Made by a program: the position numbers and the translations under genes. 64,000 nt of DNA. Origin: Candidatus Aenigmatarchaeota archaeon. GTDB lineage: Archaea; Aenigmatarchaeota; Aenigmatarchaeia; PWEA01; JACQIF01. Below the pieces are notes generated by a model. That model was not told the origin of the DNA and did no database searches. It saw only the letters and a program-made list of their open reading frames with translations. Below, in pieces: positions 32,429 to 43,849 of the stretch (position 1 is its first letter; the number at the start of each line of letters is the position of its first letter). The DNA lies in NCBI GenBank assembly GCA_016432325.1, contig CP066684.1, positions 352,001 to 416,000 on the forward strand. The letters run 5' to 3'.

Positions 32429-32842
32429 ATGGCTGAAGATTTGAGTAAGATTTCCGAACAGAATGTTCGGAATACTTCGAAAGAGGACCTTTCGAAGAAA
32501 GCGCTTGAAGCGGTCGAACTTGCAAGGAGCACCGGTTCCCTCAGAAGGGGAACGAATGAAGTTACAAAGGCGGTAGAACGCGGACAAGCAGAACTGGTCG
32601 TTATAGCAAAAGACACGGATCCGCCTGAAGTGGTCATGCACTTGCCGCCGCTCTGCGAGGAGAAGAACATTCCGTACGTTCACGTGCCTAACAAGGAAGA
32701 GCTCGGACGCGCTTCTGGGATAGAAGTCAAGTGCGCCGCTATCGCAATAGCCAAGGCAGGCGAAGCGAAGAAACTGATAGACGAAATAAGAAAGGCGAAT
32801 GGCATGGAGAGCAAATCGCCTAAGGAAAAAAAGAAAGAGTAA
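32429..32842 (+). CDS. rpl7ae: Ribosomal protein L7Ae (eL8), with 16-aa N-terminal insertion
   Basis: [36 protein letters not shown]. Confidence 0.95.
32451..32498. repeat. Double-hairpin palindromic element inserted in frame in rpl7ae (copy 2)
   Basis: 48 nt, bounded by AAGA repeats; homologous to 41928-41978. Confidence 0.75.
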
Positions 32843-41704: not shown

Positions 41705-41927
41705 TCTATGTTTCCCTCACAGAGTTCGTGAACTCATAAATTTGCATACGTGCGGCTACCCCACAGATTGTTAATGTGAAGAGCCTCTTAAATAACCAAA
41801 AATCTGCCGGGAAACCTGTCCGATATCTTTTTATACTCGGATTGCAACGCATATAATTCTCAAACGCTTCGCGCAAGCGAGGAGAAAAAAAGGAAATGTC
41901 AGAAGAAGGCAATTCCACAGCGGAAGA

Positions 41928-41978
41928 TTTTCGAACATCCTCGAGTGTTCGAAATACTTCGAACCGCCGGTTCGAAGA
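41928..41978. repeat. Double-hairpin palindromic element (copy 3)
   Basis: 51 nt bounded by AAGA repeats; TTTCGAACA/TGTTCGAAA and CTTCGAACC/GGTTCGAAG. Confidence 0.75.
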
Positions 41979-42027
41979 GCACTGTAGTTTCATTCTAGAG
42001 CTCGGCATTTATTAAAGGTGAATTCTC

Positions 42028-42621
42028 ATGGTCAAACATCTCAAACTTGCTTCTCGACTCCAAGGTGCGTGGGAAACCGGACTGACCGGAGAAAAAATAT
42101 CCATAGGCTGCCGCGTTCCCAAGGAATTCTTCGTCACGAGCGGCGCGGGAGAGAGCGACATAACGATACACGCGGGCTCTTTCGACGAGGCGATGCGCGA
42201 CGCGGGAATAGAGAACTACAACCTGATGCACTACTCCTCCATAATGCCCGCGGGCGCGGTCGAAGTCGAGCGCCCGGAAGGCGCTGTGCACGGCTCCGTT
42301 CTGGAGACGATAATGGCCGTCTCCAACAGCGAGACAGGCGTGCGCGCCACGGCCGGCGTCGTGATGGGTTGGGTCTACGACAAGCGCACAGGCAAGAAGA
42401 TCGGAGGGCTCGTCGCGGAACACAACAGCCACGAAGACGAGGAGCACGCCGTGCGGATGCTGCGCGCGAGCGTAGAGAACATGTTCAAGAACAGATACGG
42501 CAACGAAGCGGAATTGCGAGACGTGCGCATCGTGACAAAGAGCATTGTGCCTGAAAAGCGCTATGGCACGGCCATGGTAGTCGTCGGTTTCACCAGTTAT
42601 GAAGTGCCTGTCCTGAATTAG
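42028..42621 (+). CDS. pdaD: Pyruvoyl-dependent arginine decarboxylase
   Basis: SFD.A..DAGIENYNL..YSSIMP (Ser-Ser autocleavage site). Confidence 0.9.
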   Translation: MVKHLKLASRLQGAWETGLTGEKISIGCRVPKEFFVTSGAGESDITIHAGSFDEAMRDAGIENYNLMHYSSIMPAGAVEVERPEGAVHGSVLETIMAVSNSETGVRATAGVVMGWVYDKRTGKKIGGLVAEHNSHEDEEHAVRMLRASVENMFKNRYGNEAELRDVRIVTKSIVPEKRYGTAMVVVGFTSYEVPVLN

Positions 42622-42899
42622 TACCAGTCGACTTCGGGGCCTTTAACGTGTCTCTCCTGTTCGTGGGGCTGACAAGCCTTCTGGAGCTGGACCAGACTGA
42701 CGTGATGCATGGCCATAGCATAGGAGAACGCATCTATCTGTTTTAGCATCTCGGCAACCCGATATCCCAGATCTTCCATTTCCCCACTGGACACCGATGC
42801 GCGAGGACCATAGATAAACATGACTACGTCGCTAGCCGTAGTGCCTGTTTTGAGATTTTCGAAACCACAGTTTCGAATACTCAGAATCGGCGCATTCAT
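42618..42899 (-). CDS. Hypothetical protein, 5' part runs through the repeat element
   Basis: ATG overlaps rpl15e stop; no motif. Confidence 0.35.
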
Positions 42900-42919
42900 C
42901 CATAGTGCCGATTCTGAGA
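42856..42919. repeat. Double-hairpin element at rpl15e 3' end (copy 4), carrying a recoded copy of the gene end
   Basis: Bounded by TGAGA repeats; TTCGAAAC/GTTTCGAA and a 14-bp second stem. Confidence 0.75.
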
Positions 42920-43465
42920 CGGGCGCACTTTCTCCGCGCCTTTGCCGACGCTTCTCATGCCGCGCGACTTCCTTCCCGCAGACGTCAAGCCACGGAATAC
43001 GCGCCCCCTATTGGCTCCGTCAACGACCCACGAGACGTCACGGTCGCTGCGCACCGCCGGATGCGAATAGTCGACGAGAACAATCTCATACCACTCGCTC
43101 TTGCCGTCGCGGCCGACCCAGTATGAATTCAGGACTTCCAGATTGACAAACTTCTTCGCGGCGCGCTCTTCGGCAATCCACTGGTGCGACTTCTTCGGAG
43201 TTGCCCAGCGGCCCATGCTCCTCGGTTTGCGACCGCCCGACCAAGAGGGCTTCTTGCGGCCGCCGACATCGACGCGCACGCGCGCCATGACAAAGCCGGA
43301 CTTCGCCTTGTAGCCCAGCGCACGCGCGCGGTCTATCCGGGTGGGACGTTCGATGCGCGTAACTGTGTTTTCGGAACGCCATTTGATAAGTCTCTGTTTC
43401 CAAAGCTCTCCGAGCGCTTCTTGCGGCTTGTTCCATTTCTCTGCCACATACTTGTAGAATCCCAT
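42896..43465 (-). CDS. rpl15e: 50S ribosomal protein L15e
   Basis: [37 protein letters not shown]. Confidence 0.96.
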
Positions 43466-43633
43466 CGTATACACCTCTTTTGGTTTGCGACCAATCCTTC
43501 AGGCGTGCACGCCCACATCGGAGGTTTAGTGTAGTGAAAACCCAAGCTTTATATAGACGGCGGGACGTAGCAAAAACCATGGGAGCCGCATGAAACTGAA
43601 GTTTCAAAGCTCCCATGAAGAATTGGTGATGTC

Positions 43634-43849
43634 ATGGGAGCCGCGCTGAAGTTCGTGTTCGGGCTTGTCTTGCTTCTTGTGGGACTCTACCTGATCGCGC
43701 CGATCGAGATACTCTCCAAACCTGCGCTGTTCGACTGGTACGGACCGTTCGTGGCTTTGGCCAAGGGCGCGATACCTCCTTTCCTCATACTGCTCGGCAC
43801 GCTCATCGTGTGGATTGAAGGCGAAGAGCTGAAGAGCGGGAAGAAGTAA
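43634..43849 (+). CDS. Small two-TM hypothetical protein
   Basis: GGTGA RBS; two TMs and WIEGEELK tail. Confidence 0.7.
   Translation: MGAALKFVFGLVLLLVGLYLIAPIEILSKPALFDWYGPFVALAKGAIPPFLILLGTLIVWIEGEELKSGKK

Follow-up and report, generated by a model that had tools for sequence, protein, structure and literature searches.

A silently recoded second end of the ribosomal protein L15e gene in an aenigmarchaeote belongs to a hairpin cassette array whose spare gene ends behave as coding sequence

The genome studied here (G000) is that of Candidatus Aenigmatarchaeota archaeon, a DPANN aenigmarchaeote, and consists of one 874,869-bp contig of 56% G+C that is 90% complete. The window analysed is a stretch of 64,000 nt of CP066684.1 (assembly GCA_016432325.1, positions 352,001 to 416,000), and the coordinates below are those of the window unless stated otherwise. 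On the minus strand lies rpl15e (42896..43465), the ORF for the 189-aa ribosomal protein L15e, with PF00827 homologues at identities of up to 81%. The end of this gene is present twice. Copy 1, the translated gene end (42896..42919, minus strand), encodes SQNRHYG followed by TGA, and copy 2, an untranslated spare gene end (42832..42855, minus strand), encodes SQNRHYG followed by TAG. This duplication had been pointed out in an earlier note on this DNA and was confirmed: the two copies lie 64 nt apart from start to start and differ at seven nucleotides, all of them silent, including the TGA versus TAG difference in the stop codon.

Copy 1 with its stop, a 4-nt spacer, a mirror arm, TA, a second hairpin and AA together make up a 64-nt cassette unit (42856..42919, minus strand). 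The 5' arm of hairpin 1 (42907..42918, minus strand) lies within the coding sequence and is formed by codons 1-5 of copy 1, its 3' arm (42880..42891, minus strand) is the mirror image of the gene end, and its 15-nt loop holds the last three codons, the stop and four further bases. A 14-bp hairpin had been described at this position; a hairpin with a coding arm is indeed present, but only 12 bp are perfect and a length of 14 bp requires one mismatch. Hairpin 2 (42858..42877, minus strand) has an 8-bp stem, TTCGAAAC/GTTTCGAA, with arms at 42870-42877 and 42858-42865 and a 4-nt loop, TGTG, and its pattern occurs a single time in the window and in the genome. The claim that it carries a signature of other copies held in a loose form: the arrangement 'hairpin - TA(Y) - TTCGAA hairpin - (G/A)A' is real and occurs at seven sites in the genome, but with stems that differ. 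Three clustered TTCGAA-type hairpins at 41925-41985 (plus strand), between the RNase P p30 gene and the pyruvoyl arginine decarboxylase gene, belong to this loose module. TTCGAA itself is not over-represented in the genome (394 observed, 412 expected).

The stop of copy 2 is located in the loop of a small terminal hairpin of 6 bp, ACTACG/CGTAGT (42823..42842, minus strand), which is common to G000 and its most distant relative in this study, L044. The ATG of the next small ORF (MFIYGP..., 42819..42821, minus strand) follows 10 nt past that stop. Gene callers place here a 93-aa ORF (42618-42899, minus strand), the ATG of which overlaps the rpl15e stop and which crosses the cassette in a third frame; this call is probably spurious, the real small gene beginning at 42821.

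The same array was found in four relatives, with two or three copies each and with L15e proteins 70-81% identical to that of G000. G001 (79% identical) possesses two copies with a 62-nt unit, L043 (76%) two copies with a 63-nt unit, L042 (81%) three copies with units of 65 and 62 nt, and L044 (70%) three copies with units of 65 and 64 nt. The comparison set hence covers five lineages, twelve copies, seven of which are downstream copies, and seven units. An SQNRHYG end was found in four sequences besides G000, and all four carry the array; in order-level relatives L15e ends in an ordinary C-terminus of different sequence and the gene end is not duplicated, and a metagenome scan for further relatives returned only L15e genes of 60% identity or less that lack the SQNRHYG C-terminus. 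As the earlier note had maintained, an assembly artefact is excluded, since the array is present in independent assemblies of five lineages. Throughout the five arrays, every non-terminal copy is accompanied by its own arm and its own second hairpin, the latter being present in 7/7 units with a stem of 8 bp (7 bp in two units).

These arrays are deeply diverged. Where the L15e proteins of two lineages have the same amino acid, the codon differs in 47-59% of cases, showing that silent sites are saturated. Spacers and loops show no relation from unit to unit, or have been randomised, even inside one genome. No two units are near-identical overall, and units within a genome are as diverged as units from different genomes. 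The state of the array agrees between two near-identical strains and in other contigs of the same population. Two further observations concern single parts of the array. The near-identical G001-type strains L063 and L064 are distinguished by 2 of 960 nt, both of them inside the rpl15e array: one, A>G in the arm, gives a G-T pair and the other, CAT>CAC in the spare end, is silent (L063 positions 2078 and 2117), which hints that the array may change faster than its surroundings. In addition, the 22 nt comprising the second hairpin and linker (ACTCGAAACCGAAGTTTCGAGA) are identical in G001 and in unit 1 of L042 (L042 3547-3697 compared with L063 2041-2126), and the gene-end copies beside these 22 nt differ at half of their codons.

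Six of the seven downstream copies encode SQNRHYG, the copy of L043 encodes SQNRHYE through a Gly-to-Glu change, and a stop codon is retained in 7/7. The proposal that both gene ends were under coding selection found support, in that both ends, and as many as three in the relatives, behave like coding sequence: among the seven downstream copies from five lineages, 10 of the 11 variable columns are silent-capable (P = 5.6e-6), and when the same number of changes was placed at random, none of 20000 trials did as well. All of CGG, CGA, AGG and AGA are used for the Arg codon among the twelve copies, and all of TGA, TAG and TAA as stops. This variety, combined with silent-capable changes, is the mark of conservation at the level of codons and not of a sequence motif. 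The Gly-to-Glu change in L043 demonstrates that the coding constraint is not absolute. Hairpin 1 is maintained as well, with 77 of 77 cells paired; its four variable positions, which are silent, are all compensated in the arm, and 10 cells have changed on both sides, a number matched by 0/500 shuffles. Neighbouring copies differ at 4-6 of the 8 codons. Homogenisation of the copies by concerted evolution or gene conversion was rejected, as the differences between neighbours equal or exceed those seen against copies from other genomes. A slippage-type tandem repeat of the minisatellite kind was likewise rejected, the units not being homogenised, as evidenced by the same codon differences and the unrelated spacers and loops.

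Ordinary decoding cannot reach the downstream copies. The unit lengths of 62-65 nt cover all three frame classes, so that no frame is fixed between copies, and in five of the seven cases the frame of the downstream copy is closed eight codons upstream by a TGA within the CTGAG of the arm. No plausible start codon was found upstream of the downstream copies. Frameshifting, readthrough or a mini-ORF leading into copy 2 was considered on account of an open +1 path and an ATG in G000 and was discarded, both being absent from the relatives.

A scan of all ORF ends of G000 for a peptide-level repeat of the gene end within 400 nt, a search that the earlier note had suggested, yielded three clean cases: rpl15e, tfb and a histone gene. 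The end of tfb, the gene for transcription factor B (plus strand, 452778-452869 in G000 coordinates, about 2279-2370 in L045), reads (V/I)EKKIKEDED-stop twice, 62 nt apart, with seven silent differences, and the gene end contributes to a 12-bp hairpin of an A-run and a T-run that is followed by a second hairpin. The archaeal histone gene (minus strand, 653243-653317 in G000 coordinates, about 1744-1818 in L046) ends in IKLVAKR-stop twice, 51 nt apart, with two adjacent silent differences (AAA CGA versus AAG AGA) in the same layout as at rpl15e; the aIF5A gene is the next gene after this cassette. Both cassettes are lineage-specific. The tfb gene of the L042 organism (L065), encoding a 96% identical protein, has no duplication, and the G001 histone gene, likewise unduplicated, ends in a different C-terminus (KPWSG). 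With only three clean cases among all ORF ends, and with the same arrangement at rpl15e in four related genomes, a chance origin of the rpl15e duplication is excluded. In the 483 kb of G001 scanned, rpl15e was joined by one further case, on contig 8 (L073, 1-330), where the end of a small ORF, FFKRYGV-stop, is repeated 119 nt downstream. The absence of any nucleotide difference between these copies marks a young event, and the FFKRYGV-stop end itself forms a 10-bp hairpin with the stop in its 3' arm. The situation that the earlier note had named as one that would undo its reading, a very recent duplication with no parallel elsewhere, does not apply.

Gene starts are also affected. The L7Ae gene (32429-32842, plus strand) bears a cassette at its start (32429-32497) in the mirror arrangement: after MAEDLSK comes a double hairpin of 48 nt, in frame, which closes with a second EDLSK. 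The two EDLSK copies read GAA GAT TTG AGT AAG and GAG GAC CTT TCG AAG, with the codon families for Leu and Ser switched. The L7Ae gene of G001 has no insert, and its codons (TTG AGY) match the distal copy, the gene-body copy being the recoded one (CTT TCG). A small membrane gene (43634-43849, plus strand) has a 5' cassette at 43579-43644, within a region at 43548-43644 that contains, in order, a TATA box, a mini-ORF made of ATGGGAGCCGC with A and TGA, a GAAAC/GTTTC hairpin, an arm complementary to the real start, GGTGA and the real start, ATGGGAGCCGC. Counted from the gene body, the order is the same in every case, namely working copy, mirror arm, second hairpin and distal copy. The cassettes constitute a class that duplicates whichever gene terminus holds them, be it the ends of tfb and the histone gene or the starts of L7Ae and of other genes. 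Each of the three 3' cassettes has an insert that occurs only once in the genome, even with 2-4 mismatches allowed. Hairpins with the stop in the loop were considered as a general feature of the genome and rejected, stop-spanning hairpins being found at 8 of 843 gene ends compared with 3-4 in controls.

The suggestion that an element supplied a recoded replacement terminus receives partial support. At tfb and L7Ae, recoding has affected the copy adjoining the gene body, and it is the distal copy that looks like the unduplicated terminus of relatives; the distal tfb copy matches the insert-free L065 at 17 of 18 nt and the proximal copy at 14 of 18. At rpl15e every relative carries the array, so that no insert-free relative is available for comparing the working with the native end.

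Several known classes of sequence were compared with the cassettes. A bulge-helix-bulge (BHB) motif was defined as hBHBh', with two 3-nt bulges, a 4-bp helix between them and cleavage sites that restore the frame; an exhaustive search through the five rpl15e arrays and the cassettes at tfb, the histone gene and L7Ae revealed no hBHBh' at unit spacing that recurs between lineages. Rfam returned only sub-threshold, microRNA-like noise, and likenesses to C/D-box and hammerhead RNAs failed in the relatives. A diversity-generating retroelement (DGR) or other retroelement was rejected, there being no reverse transcriptase (no match to PF00078) and no adenine-specificity in the repeat differences. 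An origin from a MITE or from an IS200-IS605-derived palindromic element was rejected on the basis of single-copy inserts and the lack of Y1 or TnpB transposases: PF01797 (Y1 TnpA/RAYT) and PF07282 (TnpB) had no match in this 875-kb, 90%-complete genome and were matched in control genomes. The unit contains no ORF, its frames being closed, and hence encodes no homing endonuclease. The direct repeat of the target that flanks the insert measures 24-33 nt at rpl15e, tfb and the histone gene and is recoded at silent sites. We found no published description of hairpin cassettes that duplicate gene ends.

Integrative elements that enter the 3' ends of genes bring a replacement end with them, as in islands in tRNA genes and prophage e14 in icd, and the resemblance to the cassettes lies in a duplicated gene end that brackets an insert while the gene stays functional. 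Such islands and e14 are kilobases long and need an integrase and an identical att core, none of which applies to the rpl15e cassette. The comparison with classical integrative elements, which the earlier note had drawn, could not be upheld: there is no integrase at the site, the would-be att core differs at 7 of 24 nt, and each insert is unique. The genome does contain two tyrosine recombinase genes, both more than 100 kb from the rpl15e cassette, the insert of which measures 40 nt.

A further parallel is provided by the mobile endonuclease ORFs (mORFs) of fungal mitochondria, which carry a replacement C-terminus in atp6 of Allomyces and in atp6, atp9, cox2 and nad3 of Glomus (PMC3630166). 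In both systems the C-terminal coding part is present twice and the differences are largely synonymous. In the mORFs the gene-body copy has diverged and the native copy lies just downstream (PMC3630166), a pattern that the cassettes seem to repeat at tfb and, mirror-wise, at L7Ae. The mORFs are about 1 kb long, encode the endonuclease that moves them and leave behind a native copy that is unexpressed and regarded as decaying (PMC3630166), whereas the rpl15e cassette consists of a 40-nt hairpin insert, encodes no protein, forms tandem arrays with mirror arms and has downstream copies that are intact across deep lineages. With MITEs, Rickettsia palindromic elements and REP/BIME sequences, the cassettes share a small size, the lack of a protein, the formation of hairpins, tolerance within genes or at their borders and flanks formed by a directly repeated target (PMC2229807, PMC10969869). 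In a MITE family, near-identical copies are numerous, are bounded by terminal inverted repeats and lie between short target duplications that are themselves identical (PMC2229807, PMC10969869); unlike such families, the cassettes have unique inserts, a recoded duplication of 24-33 nt and one hairpin arm taken from the target's own sequence. Finally, the gap of T4 gene 60 and the byps of Magnusiomyces mitochondria are, like the cassettes, short hairpin inserts of probably mobile origin that leave the protein unchanged, with a stop codon at the insert start and a repeated codon context at the far end (bioRxiv 10.1101/2022.08.31.505936). Bypass elements repeat one codon and lie inside genes, in contrast to the 8-10 codons repeated at gene termini here.

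We favour, at a probability of about 0.4, the reading that an array of double-hairpin cassettes, old, passed on vertically and encoding no protein of its own, has lodged in the last seven codons of rpl15e and that its spare ends are under coding selection, which would imply that units are sometimes skipped. A cassette would be born in place, in a direct-inverted-direct copying event around a small palindrome, as suggested by the identical or near-identical copies in young cases and by the arm always being the reverse complement of the neighbouring terminus. Each unit brings a working gene end with its stop, an exact mirror arm and a second short hairpin, and the array closes with a bare gene-end copy that is probably the original; copy 2 of rpl15e is in these terms probably the older, native end. 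Since all five lineages have the array at the same codon and with a homologous second hairpin, it predates their split, and the spare ends are accordingly old and kept by purifying selection on codons. Their preservation as codons leads us to infer that, in cassette-bearing cells, a later copy acts as the gene end of some of the molecules. One or more units would be left out in these molecules, a later copy becoming the gene end, and the full and shortened forms would yield the same protein. Removal of the unit at the level of nucleic acid appears most likely, most plausibly from the RNA by a hairpin-guided cut and rejoining, or else through a part of the DNA copies lacking units; ribosome hopping is ranked as less likely. 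Rare loss of units from the DNA was rejected as the source of selection, because losing a unit takes a lineage out of the cassette-bearing class regardless of whether its relic is intact. Several points count against the favoured reading. The arrays contain no BHB motif at unit spacing, and no other splicing route is known for archaeal mRNA. The downstream copy of L043 has departed from the peptide, and matching individual copies as orthologues from lineage to lineage depends on a small number of sites. Moreover, the tfb and histone cassettes are lineage-specific and cassettes do arise in place, with two differences at the histone gene and none in L073, and some spare ends may simply be young.

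A more specific proposal is a new kind of archaeal intervening sequence, in which the unit would be removed from the mRNA or skipped independently of a BHB, and the recoded spare terminus would ensure that the protein is the same whether or not the message has been processed. We consider this unlikely. If true, it would represent an adaptation to coupled transcription and translation, with silent recoding keeping the mirror arm specific for one copy.

The main rival to selection on spare ends is the replacement of gene ends with unused relics left behind, by which a cassette with a recoded end, foreign or fast-evolving, was placed before the native end, now dead DNA, and cassettes are gained, replaced or introgressed faster than the relics decay. 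This explanation, which we hold to be doubtful, fits tfb and L7Ae, as judged from the codons that their distal copies share with L065 and G001. Cassette presence varies among relatives, one relic (L043) is damaged, and the fungal mORFs set a precedent for an unexpressed native C-terminus downstream (PMC3630166). Its fit to the rpl15e comparison is poor. A homologous hairpin 2 in all five deep lineages means that the insertion is older than their split or has spread, yet no two units are near-identical, and the deep divergence of units within a genome contradicts a rapid turnover. The middle copies of L042 and L044 have lost neither the peptide nor the perfect arm, neutrally evolving DNA should have been randomised over such a divergence, and an endonuclease, an integrase and a transposase are all absent at the site.

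It is more doubtful still that the copies are conserved as a regulatory or stabilising RNA structure. Tandem-duplicated hairpins at the 3' end of the mRNA would then block exonucleases, aid termination or bind a protein, and the copies would be held by alternative pairing with the preceding arm and not by coding. The perfect covariation of hairpin 1 would be accounted for, as would the pairing of the arm with the next copy at 11 or more of 12 positions in five of seven cases (G-U pairs included, partly counted by hand), and the hosts are highly expressed housekeeping genes. Left unaccounted for is HYG-stop, which lies outside any arm and is still conserved with 3-base periodicity and all three stop codons. 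Wobble-compatible and pair-breaking changes are about equally frequent (9 versus 5), and the count of stop-spanning hairpins given above does not describe a general feature of gene ends.

Translational bypassing is a very unlikely source of the selection. Ribosomes leaving the message in copy 1 would resume at a matching codon in the following copy, by analogy with T4 gene 60 and with the byps of yeast mitochondria, every copy being sometimes decoded. A stop inside a hairpin, a gap of 62-65 nt that is independent of frame, a duplicated peptide context and, at each non-terminal copy, a hairpin starting one base into the first duplicated codon are what such a mechanism would lead one to expect. 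At rpl15e the stop and the hairpin are present, but the match between take-off and landing codons is not conserved: no codon pair stays the same between neighbours in every lineage, and the Gly codons before the stops require different tRNAs (GGA versus GGC/GGT). Furthermore, a 12-bp stem is no obstacle to a ribosome, and a rare hop would exert too little selection. A canonical bulge-helix-bulge intron cut by the tRNA splicing endonuclease, brought to mind by the DPANN archaeal host, is scarcely tenable, since no hBHBh' motif with splice sites one unit apart occurs in the five rpl15e arrays or in the tfb, histone and L7Ae cassettes.

What is new here is the evidence from several lineages that spare gene ends are under coding constraint. 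Codons and a stop have stayed intact where no ribosome should read them, over a divergence that saturates silent sites, and no known mechanism explains such intact, untranslated ends. Either these minimal archaea possess a hidden step, be it the removal of units from RNA or DNA or ribosome hopping, or gene ends are replaced by tiny cassettes that encode no protein, through a mechanism and at a pace not yet described. Both options bear on the annotation of gene termini in DPANN and CPR genomes, on how selfish DNA can colonise essential genes harmlessly and on the origin of archaeal introns.
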